Part shown: positions 1-25,320 of the stretch, one piece after another
Numbering within the stretch: the stretch's first letter is position 1
How the letters are laid out: every line of letters starts with the position of its first letter
Assembly: GCA_963734545.1 (NCBI GenBank)
Contig: CAVTHO010000010.1
Span: 128,001-192,000 of the forward strand
Length of the DNA stretch: 64,000 bases
Source: an uncultured Spirochaetota bacterium
GTDB taxonomy: Bacteria; Spirochaetota; Spirochaetia; SZUA-6; Fen-1364
Direction of reading: 5' to 3'
The notes under the pieces: model-generated
The model's database searches: none
Told to the model about the DNA's origin: nothing
What the model saw: the letters and a program-made list of their open reading frames with translations, nothing else
Translations under genes and position numbers: made by a program

Positions 1-1278
1 GCAGGCGATTTCCTCCGGCTGGACTTTCGCGCCGGACACCTGCACGACCGCCTCCGGGCTTTTCCAACCGTTGACGACGAAAACGGGATTGAGCATCGGG
101 TACTTCGGGGAGGCGGTGAACTCGATCTGCTTCCCCCCCGAGGTGCGCAGGACGTATGCCCTCTCGGAGAATGCGAAACCTTCGTACAGAAGCGGGCCCG
201 ATGACATCCCGGGGATCGACTTGACGCACTCGTTGCCCGTCAAGACGGTTGCCGGCCGGTACCATGAGTGAGCAAGCTCTCGCAGATGCTCCGTGGGCTT
301 CTCGGTTGCTCCGACCAGGAAGAGCCACGAAGTCCCGCGGGGAGGCGTCTCAACATGGTACGACGCGGCGATCTTCTGTGACTCCTCGTCCTCCTGCAAG
401 AGGAAGGGCCGCCAGTCGTAGTTGCAGTCGACAAACGAACTGTGCGTGGCCTGGCGCCCTGCAACGTCGTCTCCCCTTGCGGCGAGGACGAAGTCCTCCG
501 CGTCCGTGACCGGCCAGTGCTTGTACACATTGCCGATCCCGCTGAAGAGAGTGAAATAGGGATGGTTCCCGCCGCACACTCCGCAGCGGCGGTATGCGAA
601 GAGCCTCTGGTCCTTGGCAAAAATGACATACGGGCTCGGCCGATCCTTGAAGTTGACTCGCCCGATGTACATGTTCCAGTCCGCAATCTGGGGAAAGGCA
701 GTGCACAGGGGCTTGAACTCATTGAACTGGATGGGCCAATCGAGGGAAATGCTCTCCCCCTTGTCGTTGGACAGCTCGAACGCCCCCTTGGGGCGCAGCG
801 TGGAATCCGGCGTCGTCCCTGCCCCGTTGACGATGATCCATTCCAGAACCTGCCACATGTTGGGGTTGCCGCCGTAGCCAGATTCGTCCCCGGGGTATGC
901 GGTGAGCGTGCGCACGGCCACGCCGTCACGGTACATCAGGTATGTCTCCTCGGCGGTGGTGTTGCCGTGGAAGACCCGGTAGCGCATGTCGGCGCAGGCG
1001 TATTGCCAGCGCACCCTGCCCCGCACGTCGTTGGCCTCGATGATGGAAGCCCGGCTGAACTTGAGCTTCTTGTCCATGATCGGCTCGTAGCAGTGGTTGT
1101 CCTCGGGGCTGTTGGTTTCCAGCCATTCCGGGGTGAACCAGACATCACCGCCCAGGTCGAGGCAGGGCACGTACTGCGCCTTGGACCAGAGGACCAGGCG
1201 GTGCTTCTGGCCGCATTCCACTACTATGGCGTGCCCCGTTGCGCCGGAAAAGCTCAGCTGCGTTTCATAGACTTTCAT
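1..1278 (-). CDS. Uncharacterised ~450-aa protein, paralog 4 of 4 (3' end runs off the window; missing from the ORF track)
   Basis: Manual translation from ATG at 1278 (GGGAG upstream): MKVYETQLSFSG...FTPEWLETNSPEDNHCYEPIMDKKL...YRVFHGNTTAEETY...GGNPNMWQVLEW...CGVCGGNHP...HWP...THSSFVDCNY; same motifs as the ORFs at 2063-6191; no stop before position 1. Confidence 0.9.
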   Translation of the reverse strand, partial: MKVYETQLSFSGATGHAIVVECGQKHRLVLWSKAQYVPCLDLGGDVWFTPEWLETNSPEDNHCYEPIMDKKLKFSRASIIEANDVRGRVRWQYACADMRYRVFHGNTTAEETYLMYRDGVAVRTLTAYPGDESGYGGNPNMWQVLEWIIVNGAGTTPDSTLRPKGAFELSNDKGESISLDWPIQFNEFKPLCTAFPQIADWNMYIGRVNFKDRPSPYVIFAKDQRLFAYRRCGVCGGNHPYFTLFSGIGNVYKHWPVTDAEDFVLAARGDDVAGRQATHSSFVDCNYDWRPFLLQEDEESQKIAASYHVETPPRGTSWLFLVGATEKPTEHLRELAHSWYRPATVLTGNECVKSIPGMSSGPLLYEGFAFSERAYVLRTSGGKQIEFTASPKYPMLNPVFVVNGWKSPEAVVQVSGAKVQPEEIAC

Positions 1279-1309
1279 GGACGTTCACTCCCTTTCCGTT
1301 GGCGGGTCC

Positions 1310-2005
1310 TCAGCGCTTGGCGAATCGATAGTACCGGGGATAGTCCTTCATCAGGAGGTAGAGCGGCTCCTCGTCCTCCTCGATCGTGGGAAACCTGCCC
1401 ACCTGCTCATGGAAGCGGTTGTCCGTGTTGTCGTCATTGCACACCGACACCTCCCCCACAAGGACTTTCGCCCCGACGCCCCAGAACTTGTGGTACATGC
1501 CCTGGGTGAGGGTGATGCTCTCCCCCGGTTCCAGAACTACCGTCTCCCCGGCAGGGACGGCCCGGCTCACGCCGTCCATGCTGACGGTCACCGGCGTGTG
1601 CGCGAAGTCTCCCGTCGCGCTGCTGTTGTACAACTGGATTGCGAGCTTCCCGCCTCCGCGGTTGATGATGTCTTCCATCTTTTTCCAGTGGAAGTGCATG
1701 GGCGTCACCTGGTTCACGTCGACGATCAGGAGCTTCTCCGCGTAGATCTTGCCCTTGCCGTTCTTCAAGCTCAGGTGGCTTCCGTTGCGGATCGTGAACA
1801 GGAAGAGGCCTCGGCGCTGGAATTCCCCGGAACCCCAGTCCGTGATGTCCCACCCCATGTCCATATCGGAGATTTCGCGAGCCTCCGCCCCTTTTCCGCG
1901 CCAATCCTGCGGCGACCAGTACGCAAACGGCGGAAGGTAGAAGTGATTCGCCCTGGCGAACGCGTCGCCTTCCCGCATTATCCCGTTGATCTCTGATCTC
2001 TTCAT
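1310..2005 (-). CDS. D-lyxose/D-mannose family sugar isomerase (cupin, YdaE-like)
   Basis: MKRSEIN start; GWDITDWG, YAEKLL, TPMHFHWKKMEDIINRGGG, PGESITL, GEVSVCNDDNTDNRF motifs of this family. Confidence 0.9.
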   Translation of the reverse strand: MKRSEINGIMREGDAFARANHFYLPPFAYWSPQDWRGKGAEAREISDMDMGWDITDWGSGEFQRRGLFLFTIRNGSHLSLKNGKGKIYAEKLLIVDVNQVTPMHFHWKKMEDIINRGGGKLAIQLYNSSATGDFAHTPVTVSMDGVSRAVPAGETVVLEPGESITLTQGMYHKFWGVGAKVLVGEVSVCNDDNTDNRFHEQVGRFPTIEEDEEPLYLLMKDYPRYYRFAKR

Positions 2006-2062
2006 TCCATCAGCTCCATTCCCGCGGTCACCGGCATCCGTTCGCCCGTTCCCGCATGCAGT

Positions 2063-3412
2063 TCATTTCCCGTAGAAACCGACGCTCGTCCTGCTCGACC
2101 ACGTCCCGTCAATCCACACCACGAGGTCCCGGCCGCTGATCTGCGCCGCGTAGGCGCCCGGGCTCACATCTGTCCCGTTGACCTTCACGCGGATGTCCTC
2201 CGGTGCGGAGGTCCAGTTCATCAGGCGGAAAGCCGGGTTCACGGCCGGGACCGTCGGATCCAGCGAAAACTCGACGCGGTCCTCCTCGTCATGCTGGCGG
2301 AACGCGTAGGCCCGAAGGGAGTAGTCGAACCCCTCGAAGATGACACGGCCTCTGCGCGGGTCTCCCTTTTCCGCGGGGCGGACGATCGTCACGGCGGCCG
2401 GCCGGCGCCAGGACATGGTGAGCCGGTCGAGCTCCGCCGGGTCGGACTTCTCCGGGACGGCTCCCACGAGCATGTACCAGGTGGTTCCCGGAAAGGGAGT
2501 GGGGACGAAATCGTCGTCGCTCGTCCGCCAGGCGTAGTTGCAGTTCATGAAGCAGGTGTGCGTGGTGATCTTGCCCACCTGGTCCAGCGCGAGGGACCCG
2601 AGGATGAAATCCTCCCTCTCTGTCCCCGGCCAGTGGGAGTAGATGGGATCGCCTTCCTGCCGGCCGAACACCTTCATGAACGGGTGATCCTTTCCGCACT
2701 TCGCGCAGCGGATGTAGGGAAACAGCGCCTGGCTTTTCGGGATGATCGTGAACGGACTGGGAGTTCCCCGCAGGCCGACGGTCCCGATATAGTTGCTCCA
2801 TCCGGCCAACTGTGGGAAATGATCGCAGATCGGACCGGGTACAGCGGGAAGCGGCCAGGATACGTTCACCGACTCCCCCTCGCCGCTTCGCAGCATCAAC
2901 GCCTCGGGCGCTCGAATGCAGTCCGTCGGCTTCGTTCCGGCGGCGTTGATGATGATGTATTCCTCGACCTGCCAGAAGTTGGCATTCCCCCCGTGGTTGC
3001 TCGCGGTCCCCGGCCACAGCACCACTTCCCGCACGGCCACCCCGTCCGGGTAGATCGTGTAGATTTCCTCCGCCGTGGTGTTCCCGTGGAAGACCTTGTA
3101 CCGCATGTCGTTCAACGCGTAGCGCCACTTGATCCTGGCGCGCGCCGGCCCGGACTCGAGGATCTCCACGCTGCTCCACCGCAGCCGCTTGTCCATGATC
3201 GGCTCGTAGCATTCCTCATCGTTGGGGCTGTTGACTTCGCACCATTCGGGCGTGAACATCACCCCGTTGCCGAGGTCCACACACCCGACGTACTGCGCCT
3301 TGTCCCAGAAGACGAATCGCCAGGCCTTGCCGAACTCCACCACGACCGCATGTCCCCTGGCGCCGGAAAACTCGAATTGGGTCTCGAACGCCCTCACAAC
3401 AGGTCCGCTCAT
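2063..3412 (-). CDS. Uncharacterised protein, paralog 3 of 4 (449 aa, starts MSGPVVRAFETQFEFSG)
   Basis: C-terminal half of the 883-aa track ORF; ATG at 3412 overlaps the upstream stop (ATGA); shared family motifs. Confidence 0.9.
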   Translation of the reverse strand: MSGPVVRAFETQFEFSGARGHAVVVEFGKAWRFVFWDKAQYVGCVDLGNGVMFTPEWCEVNSPNDEECYEPIMDKRLRWSSVEILESGPARARIKWRYALNDMRYKVFHGNTTAEEIYTIYPDGVAVREVVLWPGTASNHGGNANFWQVEEYIIINAAGTKPTDCIRAPEALMLRSGEGESVNVSWPLPAVPGPICDHFPQLAGWSNYIGTVGLRGTPSPFTIIPKSQALFPYIRCAKCGKDHPFMKVFGRQEGDPIYSHWPGTEREDFILGSLALDQVGKITTHTCFMNCNYAWRTSDDDFVPTPFPGTTWYMLVGAVPEKSDPAELDRLTMSWRRPAAVTIVRPAEKGDPRRGRVIFEGFDYSLRAYAFRQHDEEDRVEFSLDPTVPAVNPAFRLMNWTSAPEDIRVKVNGTDVSPGAYAAQISGRDLVVWIDGTWSSRTSVGFYGK

Positions 3413-4803
3413 GTGACGCTCCCTTCTGAGCCGCGCGAGATGATCCCCCGGTCCGCGAGCTCGAGCGTGACCTTCGAGTCGAAGGATCCCGCAAGCCAGA
3501 GAACCAGCTCGTGCCCGCTCACCTGGGCGCAATAGGCGTCCGGCGGCAGCACGTGCCCGTCCCGGCGGACCGCGAGCCGCTCCGCGGGCGTGTGCCACCC
3601 CTCGACGACGACCACCGGATCGAGCACGGCGGCGCCTCCGGGGTGGAAGACCGCCCGCACGCCGTCCTCCGAGCTGTTCTGACGGAACGTGTAGGCGCGC
3701 CGGGGGAAGTCGTACCCCTCGTAGACGAGCCTGCCGCTGCGGGGATCGCCCCGCTCGCCGGGTCCGCGCACGATCTCCACGGCCGCGGGGTTGCGGTAGG
3801 AGCGCACGACCCGGTCCAGCTCCGCCCCGTCGGCGCCCTCGGCCACTGCCCCGACGAGGATGTACCAGGAAGTTCCCGGGTCCGGCGTGGCCACGTAGTC
3901 CTCGTCCTTCCACCGCATGGAGTAGTTGGCGTCGACGAACGAGGTGTGCGTGGCGACTTTGCCGATGGCATCCCCGGCGGCCACCCACTCGAGGAAGTCC
4001 TCCATGTCGGTGACCGGCCAGTGCTGGTAGATGTTGATCAGGTCCTTGCCGGGGAAGAGGGTCATCGGGGGATGGTTCTTCCCGCATGACGTGCAGGGGA
4101 CGAACGGAAACAGCCTCTGGCTCTTGCAGAAAGCGGCGAAGGGGTTCGGCACGCCGGCAAGCTCCACCTTCCCGATGTAGTTCTGCCAGTCCCCGATCTG
4201 CGGAAAGTGCGTGCACAGGGGAGAGAACCAGTCGGGCGGAAGCGGCCAGGGGATCTTGAGCATTCCGCCGTTGCCGTCCCGCATGGTGAAGGCCGATGGA
4301 GTCTTGAGGAAATCCAGCGGGCTCGTCCCTGCCGCGTTGATCAGGATCCATTCCTGCATCTGCCAGAAGTTCGGGTTGCCGCCGTGGGCGTTCTCGGTGC
4401 CCGGCCACAGCGACACCTCCCGCACGGCGATGCCGTCGGGATAGATCGTGTAGATCTCCTCCGCCCGCGAGTTGCCGTGGAAGACGCGGTAACGCATGTC
4501 GGCAAGGGCGTAGCTCCATTTCACCCGGGCCCGGGCCGGTCCTGATTCCAGGATCTGGATTCTGCTCCACCGCAGTTTCTTGTCCATGATGGGCTCGTAG
4601 CAATGGTTGTCGTTGGGGCTGTTGGTCTCGCACCACTCGGGGGTGAACAGCACGCCCTTGCCCAGGTCCACGCAGCCCACATACTGCGCCCCGCTCCAGA
4701 ACACGAACCGCCACGGCTTGTCGAATTCGACGACGACGGCGTGCCCTTTCCTCCCGGAGAACTCGAAATCGGTCTCACGCGCATGCACACTCGGGTAGCT
4801 CAT
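3409..4803 (-). CDS. Uncharacterised protein, paralog 2 of 4 (464 aa, starts MSYPSVHARETDFEFSG)
   Basis: GAGGAGGGG RBS before ATG 4803; shared family motifs including CTSCGKNHP. Confidence 0.9.
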   Translation of the reverse strand: MSYPSVHARETDFEFSGRKGHAVVVEFDKPWRFVFWSGAQYVGCVDLGKGVLFTPEWCETNSPNDNHCYEPIMDKKLRWSRIQILESGPARARVKWSYALADMRYRVFHGNSRAEEIYTIYPDGIAVREVSLWPGTENAHGGNPNFWQMQEWILINAAGTSPLDFLKTPSAFTMRDGNGGMLKIPWPLPPDWFSPLCTHFPQIGDWQNYIGKVELAGVPNPFAAFCKSQRLFPFVPCTSCGKNHPPMTLFPGKDLINIYQHWPVTDMEDFLEWVAAGDAIGKVATHTSFVDANYSMRWKDEDYVATPDPGTSWYILVGAVAEGADGAELDRVVRSYRNPAAVEIVRGPGERGDPRSGRLVYEGYDFPRRAYTFRQNSSEDGVRAVFHPGGAAVLDPVVVVEGWHTPAERLAVRRDGHVLPPDAYCAQVSGHELVLWLAGSFDSKVTLELADRGIISRGSEGSVT

Positions 4804-4813
4804 ATCCCCCTCC

Positions 4814-6191
4814 TCATCCGTTGAAGCCAAAGGTCGTTGGCCGTCGGAAGGTCCCCTCCATCCACACCACGAGGTCCCTTCCGCAGTTCTGCGCGCGGAA
4901 GGTGTCCGCCGCCCGGGCCTCTCCCCCCACCGTCACCCGCGTGGCCGAGGCCGGGGCGGTCCACCCGTTGACGAGGAACACGGGATTGATCACGGGAATT
5001 CCCTCCATTCGGGCTCAGGGAGACCTCGACACGGTTCTGCCGATCGTTCTGGCGGAATGTGTAGGTCCGGATGGAGTAGTCATAACCTTCCACGACCACC
5101 CGTCCCCGGTGCGGATCCCCCTTGTCCGACGGGTCACGCACCACCACTGCGTCTGCCGGGAACCGGTAGGAGAGCGCCAGCGGATCGAGCTCCGCGCCAT
5201 CCGTTCCGTGGGAAGTGGCCCCGATCAGGAGATACCAGGTGGTGCCGGGGAACGGCTGCTGCACGAAGTCGCTCTCCTTGCGCCGCATGGAAAAGTTGCA
5301 GTCGATGAAGCAGGAATGGGTCGGGACCGTCCCCACTTCCCCGCCGCCGCTGACCCAGCCGATGAAATCCTCCTTCTCGTACGCCGGCCAGTGGACATAG
5401 GAGTTGTGGATCCCGGTCTCGTTGTGATGATCGATTCCCTGGAACAGGGTGAAATAGGGGTGGTTGCCGCCGCACGCGCTGCAGGGCATGAACGGGAAGA
5501 GCTTCTGGCTCTTGCAGATGACGGCGAACGGATTCGGGATGCTCATCATGTTGATCTTGCCGATGAAATTGGGCCAGTCCTTGATCTGCGGGAAACGGTC
5601 GCACAGCGGCCCTGCCTTTTCGGTGGGGATGGGCCAGGGAAAGCTGAACGAGCCGCCGAGGCCGTTCCTCATCGTGAAGGCGGCTTCCCGGTTCAGAACC
5701 TGCGAGGGGGTGGAGCCCTTCGCGTTGATCATGTACCACTCGTGCACCTGCCAGAAGTTCGTGTTGCCGCCGTGGTTGCTGGCGTCCCCCGGCCACAGCA
5801 CGATCTCGCGGACCGCCACCCCGTCGGGGTAGATTGTGTATGTCTCTTCCGCCCGCGAGTTGCCGTGGAACACACGGTATTGGATGTCGGCCAGCGAATA
5901 GCTCCAGCGGATTCGCGCGCGGGCGGGGCCTGATTCCAGGATCTGAATCCGGGCGTAGCGCAGCTGCTTGTCCATCATGGGCTCGTAGCATTCCTCGTCG
6001 TTGGGGCTGTTCTCCTCGCACCACTGGGGCGTGAACATCACCTCGTCGCTCAGCTGCACGGTGCCGGCGTACTGGGACTGCGCCCAGAACACGAACCGCC
6101 ACGGCTTGCCGAACTCGACCACAACCGCGTGATCCTTCTTGCCGGAGAACTCGAACTGCGTCTCATACGCATGAACGGTCGGTACATTCAT
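4814..6191 (-). CDS. Uncharacterised protein, paralog 1 of 4, with a +1 frameshift near 5000
   Basis: MNVPTVHAYETQFEFSG start; the homologous C-terminus (IPVINPVFLVNGW...RDLVVW) continues in the frame of track ORF 4814..5008. Confidence 0.85.
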
Positions 6192-6221
6192 CCCCTTCTC
6201 CTTTTCCGCACGAATGCCGTC

Positions 6222-7392
6222 CTACCGATAGCGGCCGTAGGTCTGCGCGACCTCCACCATCTTGAAGATGTTCGCCTCCGGGGTATCCCTCCCGCACTGG
6301 TCTCCCGTCGACAGCACGAACCCTCCCCCATCGGCACAGGCGTCGATCAGCCGCTTGGCCTCCTCTCCGACCTGGTACGGCGTGGCGCGCAGCATGAAGT
6401 CGAAGGTGTTGAGATTGCCCTTGAGACACACCCGGCGGCCGAATCGCTTCTTGAAACCGGCGATGTCCACGTCTCCGCCGGGCTTCCCTTCCAGGGGCTC
6501 GATGACGTTCACGTCCGACTCTTCGGCCACCAGCTCGGCGATAGCCGCTGACTTCCCGCAGACATGGACGTGGGAGATGATGCCGGCCTCCTTGCAGAGG
6601 GCGCTCACCGTTCGAATGAACGGCAAGTCATATTTACGGAAGTACTCCAGGCTGCTCACGCTCAGGCTCGAGGCCGATCCGCCCAGCCACACCTCGTCCG
6701 GCTTCGCCGCGAGGCCGGCCTTCACCTTCCCGACCGCGTACGCGCTGTACCAGTCCATCACCTCCTGGATGTACGCCTCGTCGTCGACGTAATCAAAGAA
6801 GATGGTGTTGTAGTTGCCGTCGCGCTGGCCGAACCACCAGTCCTGGGGAAGCGGAAGGATGAACGCGTACACCCCGAGATCGCCGATGGCGCCGGCGTTC
6901 GAGAACTGGGAGCTCCATCTCCAGGATCCCGGCTCTCCCAGGACGGACCGCAACCGGGGCCAGTCACGCCTCAAGTCCTTGATGGGCTTTTCCAGCTCCC
7001 AGGGGGGCTCGTCCGTGAAATAGCGCGTGGCCTCGGACAACTCGCCCACGGGCGTCTGCACGCGCGAGTGCTTGATCTTCCCGCCCTCCGGGCAGGACGC
7101 TGATTTCGGAGCCCCACGCGGGCCGGTCATCCGGAACCAGCTCCGGCAGCGAGCCGTAGATGTACATCCCGTCGAAGCCGTAGTACCGGACCGCCTCGAC
7201 GTATGCCCGGGCCACGCTCGCGGAGGTGTAGCCGGAATGCGGAAGGCCATCGAGGTACATCTCGTCGAACGGGCGCCCGCTGAGTCGCACCGGCATCATG
7301 TTGGACATGTCCGGGGACACGGCGACGTGGTCCGCTTCCGTGCAGGAATAGGCCGCGAGCATGCGCGTCCGCGCTGTCCACGCTTCCGCCAT
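6222..7392 (-). CDS. Uroporphyrinogen decarboxylase / MtaA-CmuA methyltransferase-like protein, +1 frameshift near 7081
   Basis: N-part in ORF 6964..7392, C-part in ORF 6222..7250; TPVGEL, HVHVCG, KGNLN, GGGFVLSTGDQCGRDTPEANI motifs of the URO-D/CIMS-like barrel. Confidence 0.8.
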
Positions 7393-7398
7393 GAATGC

Positions 7399-8235
7399 CT
7401 ACCCTTTCAACGCGCCGGCCATGATTCCCCGGACGAACTGCTTCTGGAAGATGATGTAGGCGATGACCGGCGGAATGGTCGCTGCCGCGAGCCCCGCCAT
7501 CTGCAGGCCCCAGTTCGTTATGTAGCGGCTGTTGAGGAAAAGCACGCCGAGGGGGATCGTGTACATCGACTGCTTCTGCATGTAGACCAGGGGATACATG
7601 AACTCGTTGTAGATCCACATGGTGTAGAAAATGGCGATCGTGGCCATGGAAGGACCGGAGAGCGGCACAAAGAGTTTCCGGAAAACCTGCCAGTGGCTGG
7701 CGCCGTCGATCCGCGCCGCGTCCAGCAGGGACTTCGGGACCGATTCGAAGAAATTCCGCAGAACCAGGACACCGAAGGCAGACCAGCTGAGGTAGGTCAG
7801 GATCAGCGCGGGGTAGCTCGAGAGGAGGTGCAGAGTGGAGATGAGCTGGTAGCCCGAGATGATGAGCGCCTGGGGCGGGACCATGAATCCGAGGAGGACG
7901 AAGATGTAGAGGGCCGTCTTGCCCCGGAAGCGAAGGGTGGCAAAGGCATAGGCCTCCAGGGCGCACAGCCCGAGGAGGCCCGCAACGGACACCGCGGTGA
8001 CGAGGATGCTGTTGAGGAAGTACCTGCCCATGCCGGCTTTCAGAAAGACGATCTGGAAGTTGCCCAGGTACAGCGTCTTGGGAAGGCCGAAGATGCTCGC
8101 GAAGATGTCCGCGCTCGGCTTGAAGGAGCTGTAGACCATCCAGACAACCGGGTACAGGACGATCACCGCGATGATCAGGAGGAAGGGGTAGGTAGCCGCC
8201 GTCAGGAATACTTTGTTCCAGGTCCTGCTGCTCAT
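7399..8235 (-). CDS. Carbohydrate ABC transporter permease (MalG-like)
   Basis: Hydrophobic segments; EAA loop SLLDAARIDGAS; GGAG RBS before ATG 8235 (alternative start 8259). Confidence 0.92.
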   Translation of the reverse strand: MSSRTWNKVFLTAATYPFLLIIAVIVLYPVVWMVYSSFKPSADIFASIFGLPKTLYLGNFQIVFLKAGMGRYFLNSILVTAVSVAGLLGLCALEAYAFATLRFRGKTALYIFVLLGFMVPPQALIISGYQLISTLHLLSSYPALILTYLSWSAFGVLVLRNFFESVPKSLLDAARIDGASHWQVFRKLFVPLSGPSMATIAIFYTMWIYNEFMYPLVYMQKQSMYTIPLGVLFLNSRYITNWGLQMAGLAAATIPPVIAYIIFQKQFVRGIMAGALKG

Positions 8236-8251
8236 GGTCGTCTCCCCCGCC

Positions 8252-9169
8252 TCAGACATCGACCTTGGGCTGATACTTCGTCTGGAGGAAGATGATCAGC
8301 ACCGTGATCAGGAGCTGGATGAGAAGAATGGAGCTGCCATAGCCGACCTTGTTCGCCGTGAACGCCTCGAAATACGCCCAGGTGGAAAGCACCTCGCTGG
8401 CGTGGTTGGGCCCGCCGGTGGTCAGCACATAGACGTTCGCGAACAGCTTGAAGCTCTCGATTGCGCCCAGCAGCGCGACCATCCAGTAGGTGGGGGCCAG
8501 CTGCGGGAAGGTGATGTACCAGATGTCCTGGAGCCGGTTGGCCCCGTCGATGTACGCCGCCTCGTGAAGCTCCTGGCTGATCCCGATCAGCCGGGAAACG
8601 AAGAGGAACATGAACAGCCCGAAGCCTCCCCACGCGTCGATCAGGACCAGGACAATGAGGGCCCGGGACGGGCTGCCCAGGAAATCCCCCGCGAGCGAGC
8701 GCAGCCCGATCGCCTTGAGGAATGGATTGATGAACCCGAGGGTCGGGCTCAGTGCCAGCTTGAACGTCACCCCTATGACCACAAGGGAAAGTACGGTCGG
8801 CAGCAGGTAGACGCCGCGCAGAAAGTTGGCGCCCGGTATCCCCTGGTCCAGGATCAGGGCGAGGAGGAGGGCCAGCCCGATCTTGAGCGTCATGTTGCCG
8901 AGGAAGAAGACGAGGTTGTGGACGAACGACCAGAGGAACACCGGATCGTCCTTCACCATGTGACGGAAGTTCTCGAAGCCGACGAAGCGGATCTGCTGGA
9001 AGCTGAAGCCGTTCCAGTCGGTGAAGGACAGGACGAGGGTGCCGACAAGCGGCAGGACAAGGAAACAGACGTAAAAAAGCAGTCCCGGGAAGAGGAACAG
9101 GAAAGCCGGGAGCCGATCTCCATGCCCGAGCAACTGCCCGTGGGTGGGGCTATTCTTTCTGACGTTCAT
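8252..9169 (-). CDS. Carbohydrate ABC transporter permease (MalF-like)
   Basis: SFTDWNG, FVGFENF, ELHEAAYIDGA, TTGGP motifs; start trimmed to the internal Met. Confidence 0.92.
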   Translation of the reverse strand: MNVRKNSPTHGQLLGHGDRLPAFLFLFPGLLFYVCFLVLPLVGTLVLSFTDWNGFSFQQIRFVGFENFRHMVKDDPVFLWSFVHNLVFFLGNMTLKIGLALLLALILDQGIPGANFLRGVYLLPTVLSLVVIGVTFKLALSPTLGFINPFLKAIGLRSLAGDFLGSPSRALIVLVLIDAWGGFGLFMFLFVSRLIGISQELHEAAYIDGANRLQDIWYITFPQLAPTYWMVALLGAIESFKLFANVYVLTTGGPNHASEVLSTWAYFEAFTANKVGYGSSILLIQLLITVLIIFLQTKYQPKVDV

Positions 9170-9277
9170 GGGTGGGTTTTCTCGACCTCGCGTTCTCGCT
9201 CCATCTCCTCGCTCGGAGGCGGGGACGATGCAAAGGGAAGGGGCCGGATACGCCACCCGGCCCGCTTCCGGCGATGA

Positions 9278-10540
9278 CTACTTACGGGCCTCCGCGATGG
9301 AAGCCTGCAGATCGTTGAGGAACTTGTCCCGTGTCAGGCTGCCGGCGAGGAGCGCAACCAGACCGTTGTAGATCTTGTCCTCCCCGACAGACGGGGGCGA
9401 CTCGATCTCGAGCCAGGGCACGGACGCCTTGGCATTCGTGTACACGGTCGCCCAGAGCTTCTTGATGCTCGGGGGCGCCACTTCGGCAATGACTCCCTTG
9501 TAGAGCGCGATGTTGCCGTCCTTCGCCCAGATCACGAACGCTTCGCGGGTTCCCAGCCAGGACAGCACCTTGAGGGCTTCGGCCTTGTGCGCCGCCCTCG
9601 AGGGAACGCCGAAGGTGCAGAGACTCGCGCCGGTAACGTCCGTCTTGTTCTTCGCATTCTTGAAGCGCGGGAATTGCGCGATGCCGACCTCGATTGCCGG
9701 AGGTTCCTTTGCCATGTCAGCGGCCATCCAGGTGCCGGTCTGGAAGAACGGGGACTTCTGGGCATAGAACGCGGCCTGCCCGGTTCCGAAGTCGTCGCTC
9801 GTCATCCCTTCGCTGAAGTAGCCCTTGTTCTTCAGGTTCAGGAAATCATCCGTGGCCAGAACGAAATCCGCATCCGTGAACTTCACGCCATTGCGGGCCC
9901 ACAGCGCGTCGAACACCCTCTGCGCGCCGACACGCTGGGCGAGGAATCCCATCCACCAGTGCATGGCGGGCCAACCGTTGCGCGCGCCGAGAGCGATCGG
10001 GTAGATCCCCTTCTGCTTGAATTTCTCGCAGGCAGCGAGGAAATCCTCGAAGGTGGCGGGGACCGCGATCCCGGCATCCTTCAGCATCTTCACGTTGTAG
10101 TAGAACTGGAAGCCGCCGTGATATGCCATGGGGATTCCGTAGATCTTGCCTTTGTACGCGACCGCGCTTTCGGCAATCGGGAACAGATCGAACTTGTCCT
10201 TCAGCTTGGCCCAGATGTCGGGAATTTCCGTCAACTGGCCCGCCGCGGCGAAGTCCCGGGTCTGCTGGTTGCCTTCCCACTGCAGCAGGTCCGGCGGCTC
10301 GTTTCCGGCGAGGCCGGTTCGGATAACGGTGAAGAAGTCTTCGTTCCCGATGGGCCTGTCCTGGATCTGGATGTTCGGGTTGGCCTTGTTCCAGGCCCCG
10401 ATCAGATCGTCCATGCCTGCCTTCTCACCGCCTGCCGTGAACTCGTGCCACCAGCTCAGGGTTACCTTAGCCTGGCCAAAGGTGACAAGAGACACGAGCA
10501 GGAGCACCAGCACCAATACTCCACGTATAGTCTTTCTCAT
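9278..10540 (-). CDS. Carbohydrate ABC transporter substrate-binding protein (SBP family 1)
   Basis: Signal peptide; NKANPNIQI, PPDLL, GKIYGIP, YYNVKML, GTW motifs; GGAGGT RBS. Confidence 0.92.
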   Translation of the reverse strand: MRKTIRGVLVLVLLLVSLVTFGQAKVTLSWWHEFTAGGEKAGMDDLIGAWNKANPNIQIQDRPIGNEDFFTVIRTGLAGNEPPDLLQWEGNQQTRDFAAAGQLTEIPDIWAKLKDKFDLFPIAESAVAYKGKIYGIPMAYHGGFQFYYNVKMLKDAGIAVPATFEDFLAACEKFKQKGIYPIALGARNGWPAMHWWMGFLAQRVGAQRVFDALWARNGVKFTDADFVLATDDFLNLKNKGYFSEGMTSDDFGTGQAAFYAQKSPFFQTGTWMAADMAKEPPAIEVGIAQFPRFKNAKNKTDVTGASLCTFGVPSRAAHKAEALKVLSWLGTREAFVIWAKDGNIALYKGVIAEVAPPSIKKLWATVYTNAKASVPWLEIESPPSVGEDKIYNGLVALLAGSLTRDKFLNDLQASIAEARK

Positions 10541-10713: not shown

Positions 10714-11712
10714 ATGGCATCGGTCACAATGCAACACGTTGCTCGTCTTGCGGGGGTTTCGATCTCAACAGTGTCCAGAGTCCTGAGAAACGATGAATCA
10801 GTCGAACCTGACAACCAGGTCAGGGTGCGAAAAGCCATCAAGGAGTCGGGCTACCGGGTAAAGCCGGCGGCAAGGCGGGATGATTCAGATCATCGTTTCG
10901 TCGCTTTGATAGTCCCCGAGATCACCAACCCCTTCTACGCAAGCATCGTGAAAGGCGTCGAAAGGGTCGCGCGGACACACGACTTCGGCGTGATGGTATA
11001 CAACTCCGAGGAAAGCGTCGAAGTCGAGAACCGTAACCTTGCGTCCGTCGTCAAGCAGGGCACGCGCGGACTCATCTATGTATCCTGCGTCGTAGAGCCG
11101 AACGATCTCGTGGAAGAGCTCATCAAAAGCCAATTCCCCCTCGTGTTCCTGGACCGGATCGCGGAGGAGAAAAACACGAACGTCGTTTTCACGGACAACA
11201 TAGAGGGGGCCTACCAGGCGGTGAAATACCTGCTGCAGCTCGGCCACCGACATATCGTGTACGTCGCCGGAACCAAGACTTCCAGCACCGAGCGTGACCG
11301 CTACCTTGGCTACTGCCAGGCCCTGCGGGACGAAGGGATCGCCGTCGATGAGCGGCTCATCGTGAACGGCGAGTACGACATAGACGTTGCCTATGAAGCA
11401 TTGAACGGGCTCCTCAGCCGGGGGGTCGATTTCTCTGCCGTCTTTTCTTCAAACGACCTGATGGCCTTCGGCGTCAAGCAGGCGCTTGAAGAAAACGGCA
11501 AGAAAGTTCCCGACGATGTCTCCATCGTCGGCTACGACGACATCAGCTTCTCGCACACGATTTCGCTCACCGTCATCTCCCAGCCGATCGTGGAAATGGG
11601 AAAAAGCGCCATGACGCTCCTCCTCGACCTCATCCATAACCGGGTCACGCCCCCGCAGAGGATCGTCCACCGGCCGTCGCTCATCATCCGCAGCTCCTGC
11701 AAGAGACGATAG
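10714..11712 (+). CDS. LacI-family transcriptional regulator
   Basis: VARLAGVSISTVSRVL HTH; NPFYASIVKGVE, ND.MA.G, VPDDVSIVGYDD. Confidence 0.95.
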   Translation: MASVTMQHVARLAGVSISTVSRVLRNDESVEPDNQVRVRKAIKESGYRVKPAARRDDSDHRFVALIVPEITNPFYASIVKGVERVARTHDFGVMVYNSEESVEVENRNLASVVKQGTRGLIYVSCVVEPNDLVEELIKSQFPLVFLDRIAEEKNTNVVFTDNIEGAYQAVKYLLQLGHRHIVYVAGTKTSSTERDRYLGYCQALRDEGIAVDERLIVNGEYDIDVAYEALNGLLSRGVDFSAVFSSNDLMAFGVKQALEENGKKVPDDVSIVGYDDISFSHTISLTVISQPIVEMGKSAMTLLLDLIHNRVTPPQRIVHRPSLIIRSSCKRR

Positions 11713-11792: not shown

Positions 11793-13634
11793 ATGTACCG
11801 TTGTCTGAATCCGGGAGCGATCGGAATCCGTGCAGGCTGGGAAGAGTGTGCGGCGCTGGCACAAGAGGGTGACTTCGAGGGAATAGACGTGCCGGTCACG
11901 GCCGCGCTCGACGTGCAGAAATGCCTCGATCGACTTGCGGAGTCCGGCCTTCGGCCGGGAGGCACGACGCTTCCCTTTGATTTCCGATCCGAGGCAGCCG
12001 TCTACGCCGACGGGCTGAAGCTCCTGGACGACATCGTTCGGCGCGCCGACAGGATCGGGGAGAGGCGTTTCTACACGTGGATCTGGTCTTTCTCGGATGA
12101 CCGGCCGATGAAAGACAACTTCCGCTTTCATGTGGAACGTCTGCGCCCGATTGCCCAGGCCCTGGACGCACGCGGCTGTGTCCTCGGGCTTGAGTTCCTC
12201 GGCCCGAAAACCCTGCGCCTCGGGCATCGTTACGCCTTCATCCACACCATGGAACACATGCTCGACCTGTGCGAGGCGGTCGGCCCGAACACCGGCCTTC
12301 TTCTCGACGCCTGGCACTGGCATACGTCCCTCGGGACCCTCGAAGATATTCGCAACCTCGCCGCACGCCAGGTCGTCTACGTGCACGTCAACGACGCCCC
12401 TGCCGGAATCCCCGTGGAAATGCAGGTGGACACTGTCCGCGCGCTCCCCGGTGAGACCGGCGTCATCGATCTTCCGGGCTTTCTCGATGCGCTGAGACAC
12501 ATCGGGTACGACGGCCCGATCGTGCCCGAGCCCTTCATGCCGGAGCTGGCAGCACTCGAGCCAATCGACGCGATCCGCCGCGTCGGGGGGGCGCTGCGTC
12601 GTGCCGGGCAGCTCCCGCCGCGCACCCCTCTTCCCACCACCATGAAGGCGATAGCGACAGGCAGCAGGAAAGCTTGGACCGTCGACGTGCCCGTTCCGCG
12701 GGCGCGCGGAAACGAGGTAGTCATCAAGCTCTATGCCAGCCCGATTTGCGGCAGCGTGATGGGAGGCTTTTTCGGAGAGGGAGAATGGATCAATCGCGGC
12801 CACGAGGGGGCGGGCGAGGTGGTCGAAGTGGCGCACAGCACCCGTCTCAAAGTCGGAGATCGCGTGGCAGCCGGAGTTCTGACCGGCTGCGGCACATGCC
12901 CTGATTGCCTTCGCGGAGACGCCATCTTCTGCAGGGAACGGCCCGAGGTCCACGGCACGTTTGCCCAGTTCACACGGGCGGCCGACATCGTGTGCACGCG
13001 TATCCCGGATTCCCTGAGCTACGCCCACGCCTCCCTCATGTGCTGCGGGCTGGGACCGGCCTACGAATCACTCAAGCGCCTGCACCTGCGCCCCTATGAT
13101 ACCATCCTGGTGTCCGGGCTCGGACCTGTCGGCCTCGGGGCAGTTGCCCTGGCCTCCACCCACGGTGCCAGAATCATTGCCGTTGATCCCGTTGCGTATC
13201 GCCGCGAGCTGGCCAGGAAACTCGGCGCCGCGGAAGCCTTCGATCCGTCCGACACCAACTTGTCGGAGATCGTGGTCGGCTTGACGGACGGCAGGGGCAT
13301 TCCCAAAGCCATCGACGCTTCGGGCGATGCATCGATGCAGCGAATGGCAATTGATCTTGCGGGAACACGCGGCGAGATCGCGTTTGTGGGGGAGAACCCG
13401 GGCACCATTCCCCTCTCTCCCAGCAAAGACATGATCCGCAAAGGACTTACCCTGCACGGCTGCTGGCACATGAACATGCTGGATGCCCCGGACCTCATTC
13501 AGTTCCTTCAGCGCTGGCCCGCCAAGGCGGACATGCTGATCACGCACTCCTGCGGATTCGCTGACGTGCAGCAGGCATTCGACACATTCGCGTCGAGACA
13601 GTGCGCGAAAGTGCTGCTCGAGCCCTGGAAGTGA
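11793..13634 (+). CDS. Fusion of a sugar-phosphate isomerase/epimerase (xylose-isomerase-like TIM barrel) and a Zn-dependent alcohol dehydrogenase (MDR)
   Basis: N: LGLEFLGP, LLDAWHW, VHVND, R.LPGETG.ID, YDGP..PE. C: ICGS, GHE, CGTCPDC...C, GLGPVG; AGGAGG RBS. Confidence 0.85.
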   Translation: MYRCLNPGAIGIRAGWEECAALAQEGDFEGIDVPVTAALDVQKCLDRLAESGLRPGGTTLPFDFRSEAAVYADGLKLLDDIVRRADRIGERRFYTWIWSFSDDRPMKDNFRFHVERLRPIAQALDARGCVLGLEFLGPKTLRLGHRYAFIHTMEHMLDLCEAVGPNTGLLLDAWHWHTSLGTLEDIRNLAARQVVYVHVNDAPAGIPVEMQVDTVRALPGETGVIDLPGFLDALRHIGYDGPIVPEPFMPELAALEPIDAIRRVGGALRRAGQLPPRTPLPTTMKAIATGSRKAWTVDVPVPRARGNEVVIKLYASPICGSVMGGFFGEGEWINRGHEGAGEVVEVAHSTRLKVGDRVAAGVLTGCGTCPDCLRGDAIFCRERPEVHGTFAQFTRAADIVCTRIPDSLSYAHASLMCCGLGPAYESLKRLHLRPYDTILVSGLGPVGLGAVALASTHGARIIAVDPVAYRRELARKLGAAEAFDPSDTNLSEIVVGLTDGRGIPKAIDASGDASMQRMAIDLAGTRGEIAFVGENPGTIPLSPSKDMIRKGLTLHGCWHMNMLDAPDLIQFLQRWPAKADMLITHSCGFADVQQAFDTFASRQCAKVLLEPWK

Positions 13635-13669
13635 GGGGAAGCACCCGCGCGGACTTCGTGGAGACCAGC

Positions 13670-16405
13670 ATGGCACAGAGGAAGCAGCGTGAGCCTGAGG
13701 GGGACTTTGGCATCGTCGAGGCGCTTTGCGAATATCAAAGGAACCCTCTGGGCATCGACGTCACCGCCCCGCGTTTCTCATGGATTCTTCGTCACACCGG
13801 CCGCGGCCAGCGGCAGTCTGCCTACCGGATCAGGGTGGCGTCAACCCTGTCCCGCCTCGAGTCAGGACGGGCCGATCTGTGGGACAGCGGACGAATCCGA
13901 TCGGCGCAGTCGGTCAACGTGCCTTATGGGGGCCGTGCGCTCCGCAGCGGGACCGCGTACCACTGGAACGTCTGCGCATGGGACCGCGGCGGACGTCGCC
14001 GCGCGCAAGGCGAAACGGCCAGCTTCGAAATGGGCCTTCTTCACGCCCGGAACTGGCGCACGGGCTGGTTCGGGTGCAGCGGGGCGACGTCCGGTGAAGG
14101 CGTTCTTTTCCGGCGCGAATTCGCCTTCCCGGGAGAGGTGACACGCGCCAGGGTCTATATCTCAGGTCTTGGCTACTACGAGCTTTCGATCAATGGCAGG
14201 AAAGTGGGCGACCATGTGCTCGATCCCGGGTGGACCGAGTACAGCAAGACCGCTCTCTACGTCACCTACGACATCGCCCCCTACCTGATGCAAGGGACGA
14301 ACGCAGTGGGCGTGATGCTGGGAAGCGGATGGCACGGCGAGCCCCTGCTTCTCCTGCAGATGGACATCGCGCTTGCGGATGGAAGCCACGTCGTCCTCCA
14401 GGATGCTGAAGGGTCCTGGCAGACGACCGGGGCTCCCGTCGTGCGCAACAGCATCTACGGCGGCGAGGTGTACGATGCCCGACTGGAGCTGCCGGGGTGG
14501 GACATGCCGGGATTCCGGACCGATCCCCGCGTCTGGGCCAATGCGCGTCGAGTGGAAGGCCCCGGCGGGAAACTGAAAGCGCAGATGCTCGAGGCAATCA
14601 AGGTGGTCCGCACGGTGAAACCGGTTCGGATCACCCGCCCCCAGCCGGGCGTTCATATCGTGGATTTCGGTCAGAACTTCAGCGGCTGGTGCCGGCTCTC
14701 CGTGCAGGGTCCACGAGGGACCTCTGTCGTCATGAGGCATGCGGAGGTCCTCTCCGCGGACGGCACCGTCAACCAGGAAAACCTCCGCACCGCGCGGGCC
14801 ACGGCTGTGTATGTCCTGAAAGGCGGAGGTGGGGAGACCTACGAGCCGCGCTTCACCTACTTCGGATTCCGCTACGTCGAAGTCACAGGCTTCCCGGGCG
14901 AGCTGACACCCGAAGACCTGACCGGCTGCGTCGTTCGTTCTTCGGTCGACACGTCCGGTGAGTTCTCCTGCTCCAATGCGCTGTTCAACCGGATCCAGAG
15001 CAACATCGTGTGGACGGAAGGGAACAACCTTCACAGCCTGCCCACGGACTGTCCGCAGCGCGACGAGCGCATGGGATGGCTCAACGACATGACGGTCCGG
15101 GCCGAGGAAGCCATCTACAACTTCTCCATGGTGCGGCTGTACACGAAATGGATGCGGGATATCCGGGATGCCCAGGACCCCGTCACGGGGGCGATAGCCG
15201 ACACGGCGCCCTTTCTGTGGGGCGGCCGCCCGGGAGACCCGGTGGACTGCTACCTGTTCGTGGCGTGGTTCCTCTACCTTTACTACGGCGATGCGCGCAT
15301 TCTCGAAGAATACTACGACAGCATGAAGCGGTGGGTGGATTTCCTCGGACGCCAGGCCGATGACCTCATTGTGCCCTACACCCGCTATGGCGACTGGTGC
15401 ACGCCGATCAAAGACTGCCTGCCCGCAGACACGTCCGATATTCCTGAGGAATCCCGGGGCGCAGTTGTCCGTCTCGGGTCCTATCCCCGGGCAACCCCGG
15501 GCGCTCTCATCTCCACTGCCTACTACCATTACAATGCCCTCATCCTGTCGCGAATCGCTGAACGGACGGGGAACGGGCGCGATTCACGCCGCTATGCTGC
15601 GCTGGCACGCCGGATAGCATCAGCGCTCAATAAACGCTTCTTCGACCCTGACACGGGCAACTACGCCACCGGGAGCCAGGGCTCCAACACTCTCCCGCTC
15701 TTCCTGGGGATCGTGCCCCGGCAGCAGCGTCATCTGGTCCTGCGCAACATCGTTCAGGACATCGTCGAGAAGCACGGGGGGCACCTGAACGCGGGCAACC
15801 AATGCACGAAGTACATGTTCGAAGTGCTCACGGAGCTCGGGGCGGGGGACGTCGCCTACGGGATGATGAACCGCACCACGTATCCCAGCTGGGGCTACAT
15901 GATCGAGCACGGTGCCACCACGATCTGGGAACGCTGGGAGGAGTTGACCGGGCCGGGCATGAACTCCCACGACCATCCCATGCTGGGAGCTGTCGGCGCC
16001 TGGTTCTACAAGTACCTGGCCGGGCTGCAGGCAGATCCTCGGTCCCCCGGATGGCAGTCGTTCCAGGTCAGGCCGCATGTCCTTTCTGACCTTGGCTCTG
16101 TCACGGCGACGATTCGAACCGTTCGAGGGAGGATTTCCGTCGCGTGGGAACGAAAGCCCGGCCAGCTTACGCTCGACGTATGCGTTCCTGTCAACAGCTC
16201 AGCCAGGATCCACATCCCCTTGCTGGGAAGCACGCACGCGCAGGTATCAGAGGGCGACACTCCGCTGTGGGACGGGACGAAGGGTTCGGAAGGAATTGCC
16301 GGCTTGAGGCGCGTTCGGCAGGTGGACGGATACCTGGCGGTCGACGCGGGATCCGGCTCCTACCATTTCGCTGTCCGCGCCCACGAGCCGGTCAAGCCGC
16401 AGTGA
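13670..16405 (+). CDS. Alpha-L-rhamnosidase, GH78 (no signal peptide)
   Basis: NPLGID..PRFSW, GLGYYEL, DFGQNFSG, PTDCPQRDERMGW, GATTIWERW, MNSHDH motifs. Confidence 0.93.
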   Translation: MAQRKQREPEGDFGIVEALCEYQRNPLGIDVTAPRFSWILRHTGRGQRQSAYRIRVASTLSRLESGRADLWDSGRIRSAQSVNVPYGGRALRSGTAYHWNVCAWDRGGRRRAQGETASFEMGLLHARNWRTGWFGCSGATSGEGVLFRREFAFPGEVTRARVYISGLGYYELSINGRKVGDHVLDPGWTEYSKTALYVTYDIAPYLMQGTNAVGVMLGSGWHGEPLLLLQMDIALADGSHVVLQDAEGSWQTTGAPVVRNSIYGGEVYDARLELPGWDMPGFRTDPRVWANARRVEGPGGKLKAQMLEAIKVVRTVKPVRITRPQPGVHIVDFGQNFSGWCRLSVQGPRGTSVVMRHAEVLSADGTVNQENLRTARATAVYVLKGGGGETYEPRFTYFGFRYVEVTGFPGELTPEDLTGCVVRSSVDTSGEFSCSNALFNRIQSNIVWTEGNNLHSLPTDCPQRDERMGWLNDMTVRAEEAIYNFSMVRLYTKWMRDIRDAQDPVTGAIADTAPFLWGGRPGDPVDCYLFVAWFLYLYYGDARILEEYYDSMKRWVDFLGRQADDLIVPYTRYGDWCTPIKDCLPADTSDIPEESRGAVVRLGSYPRATPGALISTAYYHYNALILSRIAERTGNGRDSRRYAALARRIASALNKRFFDPDTGNYATGSQGSNTLPLFLGIVPRQQRHLVLRNIVQDIVEKHGGHLNAGNQCTKYMFEVLTELGAGDVAYGMMNRTTYPSWGYMIEHGATTIWERWEELTGPGMNSHDHPMLGAVGAWFYKYLAGLQADPRSPGWQSFQVRPHVLSDLGSVTATIRTVRGRISVAWERKPGQLTLDVCVPVNSSARIHIPLLGSTHAQVSEGDTPLWDGTKGSEGIAGLRRVRQVDGYLAVDAGSGSYHFAVRAHEPVKPQ

Positions 16406-18513: not shown

Positions 18514-18826
18514 ATGGACAACCCAGGCAAAGCCGAAAGCCTTTCGCTCCTCATTGTCGACGACGAGGTGCTCACCCGATCCCTGCTCAGGAACTGCCTC
18601 GACTGGGGGAGCCTCGGCATTCGAATCGTCGGAGAGGCGGCAGATGCGGAGGAGGGCTACACTATCGTCAAGGGCCTTCGCCCCGACATGGTGCTGACCG
18701 ATATCCGGATGGGACGGATCGACGGTATCAATTTCGGAGGCACGGTACGCTGGGCATACTCGAACTCGTCATAGCCCGTGATCACGACTACCCGTGTGCG
18801 CGGGAATTCGGCCTTTACTCCCTGGC
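18514..18826 (+). pseudogene. Disrupted YesN-type response regulator receiver domain; 18736-18826 lies in inverted orientation
   Basis: + strand LIVDDE...DMVLTDIRM..IDGINF; the - strand of the adjacent segment reads VKAEFPRTRVVVITGYDEFEYAQR, the expected continuation. Confidence 0.8.
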
Positions 18827-20332: not shown

Positions 20333-20464
20333 CAAGGTTCCTCCCCGCATTCCTATTCATCTGCCGGATCGCACTCCAGTACATCATATTTCTTGTCCCG
20401 CATCACGGTTTTCTTGACCTGAGCCGCACCTTGACGCCGAGGTCCGGGCTTTCCATACTGGCAG

Positions 20465-25277: not shown

Positions 25278-25320
25278 ACGAGGATACTACACAACAACGG
25301 CGCCGGTGTCCAGCATATTT

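Follow-up and report, generated by a model that had tools for sequence, protein, structure and literature searches.

A four-paralog array of an unannotated protein family, candidate carbohydrate-active enzymes, in a sugar-uptake operon of an uncultured Spirochaetota bacterium

Galactose mutarotases (aldose 1-epimerases, e.g. L. lactis GalM, 1l7k) are built on a large sugar-binding beta-supersandwich and use a catalytic set of two histidines plus Glu/Asp. In the glycoside hydrolase (GH) families GH2 (beta-galactosidases) and GH38 (alpha-mannosidases), supersandwich domains are appendages to a TIM-barrel or GH38 catalytic core (6sd0, 7dd9). The GH127/GH146 cysteine glycosidases, with a Cys3-Glu zinc site and an (alpha/alpha)6 barrel, offer a precedent for a Cys-rich zinc site in an intracellular glycosidase. 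In the beta-1,2-glucanases of GH186 (OpgG/OpgD; 1txk, 8ip2; PMC10514313), a large N-terminal supersandwich-like catalytic domain is combined with a smaller C-terminal beta-sandwich, which gives a precedent for glycoside hydrolysis. Mutarotases and GH186 show that a supersandwich-type domain can itself be catalytic on sugars. Here we analyse four tandem paralogs encoded in a 64,000-nucleotide stretch of DNA (hereafter the window; contig CAVTHO010000010.1, positions 128,001 to 192,000) from an uncultured Spirochaetota bacterium. The family to which they belong is real, large and unannotated in Pfam, NCBIfam and the Protein Data Bank (PDB), and it is a candidate new family of carbohydrate-active enzymes that are probably glycoside-cleaving.

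The genes of the array and of the surrounding operon, including the ATP-binding cassette (ABC) transporter genes, are as follows (ORF, open reading frame).

4814..6191, minus strand: paralog 1, with a single-base frameshift near 5001-5005; its in-frame ORF is listed as 4800-6191
3409..4803, minus strand: paralog 2, intact, 464 residues; the protein used for modelling
2063..3412, minus strand: paralog 3, intact, 449 residues; its start overlaps the stop of paralog 2
1310..2005, minus strand: D-lyxose/D-mannose isomerase (cupin; PF07385, E 2.1e-100), between paralogs 3 and 4
<1..1278, minus strand: paralog 4, 426 residues in the window; listed only as an open-ended ORF
6222..7392, minus strand: URO-D superfamily gene, MtaA-like, with HxCG and GDQCGRD motifs; frameshifted near 7121
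7399-8259 and 8252-9256, minus strand: two ABC sugar permeases
9278..10540, minus strand: extracellular solute-binding protein, first gene of the operon
10714..11712, plus strand: LacI-family regulator, divergently transcribed

The paralog array and its family

All four paralogs lie on the minus strand, at the coordinates that a first-pass annotation of this DNA had given, within a string of tightly packed genes (positions 1-10540, with gaps of 6-57 nucleotides or overlaps) in the order solute-binding protein, two permeases, URO-D/MtaA-like gene, paralogs 1-3, D-lyxose isomerase and paralog 4. The stop of paralog 2 and the start of paralog 3 share the sequence ATGA, an overlap that implies translational coupling, and 10 nucleotides, with GGAGG in between, separate the stop of paralog 1 from paralog 2. 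The annotation had also held that the ORF list obscures the array, and this is correct: paralog 3 appears there only as the C-terminal half of an 883-residue ORF (2063-4714), the first half of which shadows paralog 2 in another frame, paralog 4 is left open-ended, and paralog 1 is frameshifted. From its start at 6191, paralog 1 matches its intact ortholog in frame -3 as far as 5001 and in frame -1 from 5005 to the stop at 4814-4816. About 26 C-terminal residues of paralog 4 lie past the window edge, judged by its 452-residue ortholog in L001, a locus from a Spirochaetaceae metagenome-assembled genome (MAG).

The four proteins align over their full length of ~450 residues with pairwise identities of 45-60%, far above chance. 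Each of the motifs listed by the annotation, namely FTP(E/Q)W.E.NSP.D..CYEP.MDK, Y(R/K)VFHGN..AEE.Y, GGN.N.WQ..E, P(L/I)C, C..CG..HP, HWP...EDF and TH..F, is present in all four, and the variable positions are as it described, with Q for E in paralog 1 and H, Q, E or L two residues past WQ. The proposed sugar-uptake context is borne out by the gene content of the operon (ABC transporter parts, LacI and lyxose isomerase).

The family had been called uncharacterised, and database comparisons agree with this. None of the four paralogs has a match at E <= 0.1 in Pfam-A and NCBIfam, and a profile built from them retrieved nothing meaningful among PDB sequences. A stretch of class C beta-lactamase in the PDB sequence search (E 0.0035) was rejected as chance level, and a weak zf-dskA_traR match in paralog 3 (E 0.016), which lies below the cutoff, was also set aside. 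In the ESM Atlas the nearest clusters are unnamed hypothetical proteins, with no usable match among named clusters, and our literature search on fucanase families, URO-D/lyxose isomerase operons, supersandwich domains and new GH families, and sugar demethylation found no description of the family.

Relatives are numerous. A word-index search yielded 123, of which 111 have 285-482 residues, carry no Pfam domain and are named, if at all, 'hypothetical protein'; nine others have 677-735 residues, one of them with a LamG domain. Scanning 1.84 billion representatives clustered at 50% identity with a 62-sequence HMMER profile gave 944 relatives at E <= 1e-3, 548 at 1e-10 and 235 at 1e-30. Most of these have 550-1770 residues with the module at the C-terminal end (median N-terminal extension 291 residues, median C-terminal extension 3 residues). 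A separate search for longer relatives with the short-form profile gave three matches, none of them functionally named. In contigs sampled at one genome per species, 297 stretches encode a relative, and the 78 loci kept from these come from Chloroflexota, Bacillota, Spirochaetota, Armatimonadota, Aerophobetes, Acidobacteriota, Bacteroidota, Planctomycetota, Brockarchaeota, Bathyarchaeia and others, 77 of them from a MAG or an uncultured source.

The family comprises short and long forms. Short forms have ~440 residues; with the domain beginning at residue 1-30, they offer no space for a signal peptide. In a crude test of hydropathy, a signal-peptide-like hydrophobic N-terminus is found in 80 of 106 long forms versus none of 117 short forms. 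In the window proteins the conserved domain begins at about residue 6, which leaves no room for a signal peptide, and they are cytoplasmic, as the annotation had supposed. Fifty-six long relatives were picked for a Pfam scan, four of which were dropped over a size limit. In the remaining 52 the module occurs with LamG (15), CBM9 (6), Calx-beta (5), PKD (5), a type IX secretion system (T9SS) sorting tail (3), dockerin (2) and GH115_C (1), and once or twice each with pentaxin, F5/8 type C, Flg_new_2, TSP3 and FlgD_ig; 22 carry no other Pfam domain, and a known catalytic domain was found in none.

The suggestion, offered in the first-pass annotation, that the motif order resembles the unannotated C-terminal region of LamG proteins proved right, since the 120 best matches of a profile of the long, LamG-fused form (1716 clusters at E <= 1e-10) all carry PF13385 and bear only generic names ('LamG domain-containing protein', 'Concanavalin A-like lectin/glucanases superfamily' and 'hypothetical protein'). 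The short-form profile matches the long proteins over positions ~12-436 with E values down to 1e-68 (for example, E 3.8e-52 over residues 298-686 of protein P0112). Thus the window proteins belong to a superfamily of LamG-associated C-terminal modules, with a full-length match over ~430 residues and shared invariant W, E, D, R and H residues. The LamG proteins of Acidobacteriota, Bacteroidota, Planctomycetota and their relatives are homologous to them over the whole module. These long forms have 670-1700 residues, are secreted, are fused to LamG, CBM9, PKD or Calx-beta and lack a set of three cysteines and one histidine (Cys3His), whereas the window proteins are stand-alone, cytoplasmic and have this set.

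Predicted fold and conserved residues

The AlphaFold2 model of paralog 2 (62-sequence alignment; predicted local distance difference test (pLDDT) 94.9, predicted template-modelling score (pTM) 0.94) is almost all beta, with a large domain at residues ~1-340 and a smaller sandwich at ~341-455; the N-terminal domain folded alone reaches a pLDDT of 96.6. When the full model was compared with the PDB by Foldseek, only supersandwich domains of carbohydrate enzymes were retrieved (probability ~1.0, query-normalised template-modelling (TM) score 0.25-0.34), among them domain 5 of a GH2 beta-galactosidase (6sd0, E 2.5e-8), the C-terminus of the GH38 protein Ams1, OpgG/OpgD of GH186, galactose mutarotases and polysaccharide lyases of family PL8. 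Since the best TM score rises to only 0.44 (6sd0) with the N-terminal domain alone, the predicted fold is an elaborated version of the galactose-mutarotase-like supersandwich, distantly related to it and without a close homolog among solved structures.

Comparison with the described systems brings out likenesses and differences for each. The large sugar-binding supersandwich of galactose mutarotases distantly resembles the N-terminal domain (Foldseek probability 0.99-1.0, TM 0.39-0.43, i.e. below 0.5). The family differs from these enzymes in having an extra C-terminal beta-sandwich and secreted multi-domain relatives, in the kind and order of its conserved residues, and in lacking a sequence match, as the four paralogs gave neither a Pfam match to PF01263 (Aldose_epim) at E <= 0.1 nor a PDB sequence match. 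The GH186 division into a large N-terminal beta domain and a C-terminal beta-sandwich agrees with the two-domain, all-beta model of paralog 2 (Foldseek E 1.1e-5), with a TM score of only 0.27-0.37 (0.37 for OpgG against the N-terminal domain alone). OpgG is periplasmic, has no Cys/His site and shows no sequence similarity to the family; no Pfam, NCBIfam or PDB sequence match to GH186 (MdoG) was found for the four paralogs. The best Foldseek matches of all are the accessory domains of GH2 and GH38 (E 2.5e-8, TM 0.34-0.44), which are parts of larger enzymes, whereas in the window the module makes up the whole protein.

Residue conservation was assessed in 210 near-complete domains, short and long forms together, aligned to the profile (paralog 2 numbering). 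W36, E59, E70, D74, R91, W96, E116, R128, E151 and W262 are at least 98% conserved, H261 is 95%, H286 92% and C68 91% conserved, and the ten residues named first, H261 and H286 are present in each of the four window paralogs. This set of acidic, basic, histidine and tryptophan residues persists down to ~25% identity and is what would be expected of a sugar-binding catalytic pocket. The annotation had assigned the invariant Glu, Asp and His residues to an active site, a suggestion with which their conservation across the whole superfamily is consistent.

It had also proposed a zinc site formed by the P(L/I)C and C-x2-C-G-x2-H elements, a ligand set that all four window paralogs possess. C197, C237, C240 and H244 occur together in 115 of the 210 domains, every one of these from a protein of at most 520 residues; none of the four is present in 69 domains (64 from long proteins), and a partial set is found in 26. 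Among the 62 short forms C197, C240 and H244 are invariant and C237 is at least 90% conserved. Judged from the alignment, a single Cys3His metal site would fit both the way in which the four residues come and go together and their C-x2-C-x3-H spacing. The absence of this site from almost all secreted relatives makes a structural role likelier than a catalytic one, so that the proposal stands as that of a probable structural zinc site of the cytoplasmic subfamily. The site differs in this respect from that of GH127/GH146, being dispensable in secreted relatives; the fold also differs, and the four paralogs have no Pfam match to the GH127/GH146 catalytic domain (PF07944).

Function of the module and competing explanations

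We consider the chances about even that the module is the catalytic unit of an uncharacterised family of carbohydrate-active enzymes that cleave glycosidic bonds, as hydrolases or possibly lyases, and that the array combines members with diverged specificities. The argument for a catalytic module draws on the long relatives, which combine with no known catalytic domain. Secreted relatives, with the module behind LamG, CBM9, PKD, Calx-beta or dockerin, would attack polymers, and the stand-alone forms of the window would act on oligosaccharides imported by the ABC transporter of the operon, with the released sugars passing to the D-lyxose/mannose isomerase and to dehydrogenases. Catalysis would involve E59, E70, D74, E116, E151, H261 and H286 together with R91, R128 and three tryptophans, and C197, C237, C240 and H244 would form the structural zinc site peculiar to the cytoplasmic subfamily. 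The first-pass annotation had spoken of a candidate new family of intracellular carbohydrate-processing enzymes; the family is unannotated, lies in sugar loci and is cytoplasmic in the window, and it also has many secreted relatives.

A module of ~430 residues that forms about a thousand clusters at 50% identity, occurs in at least 10 bacterial and archaeal phyla and is found in polysaccharide-utilisation loci is yet without a Pfam model or a solved structure. If catalytic, it would define a new carbohydrate-active enzyme family, explain the role of the many proteins that bear the name 'LamG domain-containing' in soil Acidobacteriota, Planctomycetota and Bacteroidota, and fill gaps in the turnover of rhamnose- and fucose-containing glycans. 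Being small, apparently soluble and modelled with high confidence, the intact cytoplasmic paralogs make good starting points for biochemical work.

The carbohydrate context proposed for the window is upheld by a survey of 77 homolog loci, for which ORFs within 7 kb of the family gene were clustered and the cluster representatives scanned with Pfam. The most frequent neighbour is a Zn-dependent alcohol dehydrogenase (33 of 77 loci, 12 copies adjacent), followed by LacI (19), a URO-D-like protein (15, with 9 copies adjacent and further matches by tblastn only, e.g. in L001, L013 and L035), TonB-dependent receptors (15) and parts of ABC sugar transporters (14-15). Less frequent are a GH106-like rhamnosidase (11), DUF6785/DUF6784 (11), GH29 fucosidase (10), aldo-keto reductase (9) and a GH141-like protein (8), then GH13, GntR, SSF symporters and Amidohydrolase_2 (7 each), the RhaM mutarotase (5), RhaT-like proteins (4) and the short form of a lyxose-isomerase-like cupin (4); full-length lyxose isomerase is also encoded in L001, L003 and L028. 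In Acidobacteriota, the long forms lie in what seem to be loci for the use of L-fucose or L-rhamnose, which encode a receptor, GH29, a GH141-like protein, a dehydrogenase, a lactonase, a dehydratase and an aldolase. The surroundings of the short forms vary more, but in every case the locus is a sugar locus. Overall, the gene content hints loosely at glycans with a high proportion of L-rhamnose or L-fucose.

Several observations weigh against a glycoside-cleaving module. The structural likeness is weak, with a best TM score of 0.44, and in most of the top Foldseek matches the supersandwich is an accessory, non-catalytic domain. A match to any known catalytic family was not found in Pfam, NCBIfam or PDB sequences. 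The all-or-none cysteine pattern is essentially one split between the short and long clades and counts as about one event. The fucose/rhamnose signal comes mainly from the distant long forms of Acidobacteriota, and the short-form neighbourhoods are a mixture of URO-D-like, Zn-dependent alcohol dehydrogenase, DUF6785, GH13 and GH106-like genes.

The strongest competing explanation, which we nevertheless regard as unlikely, is that the module does not cleave glycosides: it would be a mutarotase, epimerase or isomerase acting on free sugars, or a non-catalytic carbohydrate-binding or accessory domain as in GH2, GH38 and PL8. The best structural matches include galactose mutarotases (TM 0.42-0.43), the two conserved histidines and the Glu/Asp residues of the family resemble the set used by mutarotases in catalysis, the neighbouring genes encode, among others, sugar isomerases, dehydrogenases and DUF4432, and the domain is accessory in most PDB matches. 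However, an enzyme for monosaccharides is hard to square with secreted LamG, CBM9, dockerin and T9SS architectures that have no other catalytic domain (52 of 52), and Pfam gives no match to Aldose_epim or DUF4432. As for an accessory domain, about a dozen invariant charged and aromatic residues at 25% identity exceed the conservation usual for binding modules.

A glycoside-cleaving module might, alternatively, already belong to a CAZy family for which no Pfam model exists, such as the endo-1,3-fucanases of GH187, with the window genes as its cytoplasmic members; we think this improbable. Long forms of Acidobacteriota lie beside GH29, GH141-like and L-fucose catabolism genes. GH187 was established through the 'discovery of a catalytic domain' in a multi-domain protein of 101 kDa and has homologs in Planctomycetota (PMC11943901, PMC11685898), and dbCAN v3 is reported not to have detected GH174 or GH187 reliably (PMC11685898). 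On the other side, no enzyme name occurs among the 240 relatives listed. The catalytic residues reported for Fun174A (D119, E120 and E218; PMC11943901) are N-terminal, whereas our module is C-terminal in the long forms and has no invariant D-E pair. Membership in GH174, like GH187 a family of endo-fucanases, is therefore unlikely, as judged from the reported residue positions alone, GH174 and GH187 having been compared with the family by their published descriptions. Uncharacterised enzymes in sugar operons are a familiar type of finding, and overlap with an existing CAZy family is possible.

The URO-D-like gene, a conserved neighbour of the family, invites another explanation that we hold to be very unlikely: short forms and the adjacent MtaA-like zinc enzyme would be a two-protein system for O-methylated sugars (methyl-fucose, methyl-rhamnose or methyl-uronates) carrying out anaerobic demethylation. 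The gene immediately precedes the family gene in 9 loci and lies no more than 7 kb away in 15 of the 77, and these loci span several phyla of bacteria and archaea. The best PDB relative of its product is the methylcobalamin:coenzyme M methyltransferase MtaA (4ay7, E 7.6e-17), followed by uroporphyrinogen decarboxylases and by CdmB of Acetobacterium. Bacterial copies keep HxCG and GDQCGRD, the latter aligned two positions from the cysteine of the MtaA PGCG motif; we take HxCG and this second cysteine motif to correspond to the zinc ligands of MtaA. In a Bathyarchaeia MAG (L018:11284-14377) the order is family gene, URO-D-like gene, corrinoid protein (B12-binding and B12-binding_2, DxHxxG) and second URO-D-like gene, which from its gene content resembles a methyltransferase set of three components embedded in a sugar locus. 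Against this explanation, a corrinoid protein is encoded in only 2 of 78 loci, L018 and L030 (the L030 copy ~9 kb from the family gene), and none was found in the window; the long forms and many short forms have no URO-D-like neighbour, archaeal URO-D-like copies beside the family gene lack the cysteine of HxC, and the literature search found nothing on corrinoid-dependent sugar demethylation. A complex predicted for the L001 URO-D-like protein, the adjacent family protein and zinc scored 0.00 in a run without controls, a value that counts neither for nor against binding.

A bolder combination, which we rate slightly lower still, would make the family a new glycoside-cleaving class with its active site on the supersandwich-like domain, the zinc-bearing forms of anaerobes acting with an MtaA-like, sometimes corrinoid-linked, methyltransferase in the degradation of O-methylated deoxy-sugar oligosaccharides. 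If true, the MtaA-linked part would amount to an anaerobic route of sugar-ether demethylation not previously described.

Two side observations concern the neighbourhoods. In Armatimonadota, Hebobacteria and Brockarchaeota, DUF6785/DUF6784 proteins of ~650 residues flank the family gene (11 loci, namely L017, L020, L021, L023, L025, L027-L030, L033 and L048, with 7 copies adjacent) and may take the place of the ABC transporter. In the Chloroflexota loci L003, L006, L007 and L013, a protein of ~460 residues with a marginal DUF455 match (E 9.7e-9) is encoded upstream of the pair of URO-D-like and family genes.

Divergence of the paralogs and the rest of the window

L001 has the same gene order as the window (LacI, solute-binding protein, two permeases, URO-D-like, family genes A, B and C, lyxose isomerase, family gene D), with all genes intact. 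Orthologs in the window and L001 are about 89 (88-89 for paralog 1), 79, 76 and 74% identical for paralogs 1-4, compared with 45-60% between paralogs (paralog 1 corresponds to L001:8613-9989 and paralog 2 to L001:10001-11362). In a tree of 73 rows, with five long-form domains as outgroup, every paralog of the window is grouped with its counterpart from L001; paralogs 1-3 fall, together with two further sequences, into a single clade (Shimodaira-Hasegawa-like approximate likelihood ratio test (SH-aLRT) 94), whereas paralog 4, L001_D and P0085 form a separate, deeper clade. The array can thus be described, from this grouping, as a lineage-specific triplication plus one older paralog.

The ratio of nonsynonymous to synonymous substitution (dN/dS) between the window and L001 is 0.05-0.11 and suggests that each paralog has been kept under purifying selection. 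The lowest value belongs to paralog 1 (0.054), which implies that its frameshift is very recent or an assembly error. The URO-D-like ortholog of L001 (L001:7411-8583, 390 residues) is likewise intact, compared with the frameshifted copy in the window, and the fact that neighbouring genes of the operon are both frameshifted points to incipient decay or to errors of assembly. Three points should temper conclusions about the array: the tree comes from a quick maximum-likelihood search only, dS is saturated (1.4-2.3), which makes dN/dS rough, and, with frameshifts in both paralog 1 and the URO-D-like gene, the locus may be decaying or the assembly faulty.

Residues that are specific to single paralogs and lie beside the invariant ones are kept in the orthologs (TPQW in paralog 1, H, Q, E or L in WQ-x-H/Q/E/L, CE(E/T/V)N, and GYGGN in paralog 4). 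The annotation had left open substrate diversification or a hetero-oligomer; diverged specificities are, on the residue pattern, the simpler reading, and an obligate hetero-oligomer is disfavoured by the copy numbers, as the family gene is single in 65 of 77 loci, with more than one copy in 12, one of which (L035) is a split gene. That the four paralogs assemble as an obligate hetero-oligomer is accordingly a notion we also hold to be very unlikely, even though the genes are tandem and co-transcribed, two are translationally coupled and the set of four is conserved in L001, since most loci are single-copy (of L001-L041, the closer loci with short forms, several copies occur only in L001 and L039), paralog 4 comes from a different, older clade and paralog 1 is frameshifted in the window. 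The split gene, at L035:9995-11303 in a Chloroflexia MAG, consists of two overlapping pieces in different frames, which looks like one more frameshift, here in a MAG of long-read style.

Directly after the solute-binding protein gene, at 9241-9263 on the minus strand, there is a hairpin (10-bp stem) that could be an intra-operon stabiliser or attenuator; a promoter and terminator scan of the window was at chance level overall. Other features of the window are the following.

11793-13634, plus strand: fusion of a xylose-isomerase-like TIM barrel (AP_endonuc_2) and a Zn-dependent alcohol dehydrogenase
13601-16405: GH78 rhamnosidase
18815-20350: GH43
25135-32785, plus strand: SMP-30 gluconolactonase-like protein, HpcH/HpaI aldolase, ribose-type ABC parts, 2-hydroxyacid dehydrogenase and RraA-like aldolase
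39201-41276, plus strand: protein of 691 residues, almost wholly ankyrin repeats
55838-64000, minus strand: ORF of more than 2716 residues with RTX and EF-hand repeats

The fusion protein at 11793-13634 is 77% identical to the product of the L001 gene directly after paralog D; in the window it sits on the other side of the operon. The gene set at 25135-32785 resembles non-phosphorylative deoxy-sugar catabolism, and, like its lactonase and HpcH aldolase, a GH53 gene lies further along the window than the GH78 and GH43 genes. The ORF with RTX and EF-hand repeats runs off the end of the window.

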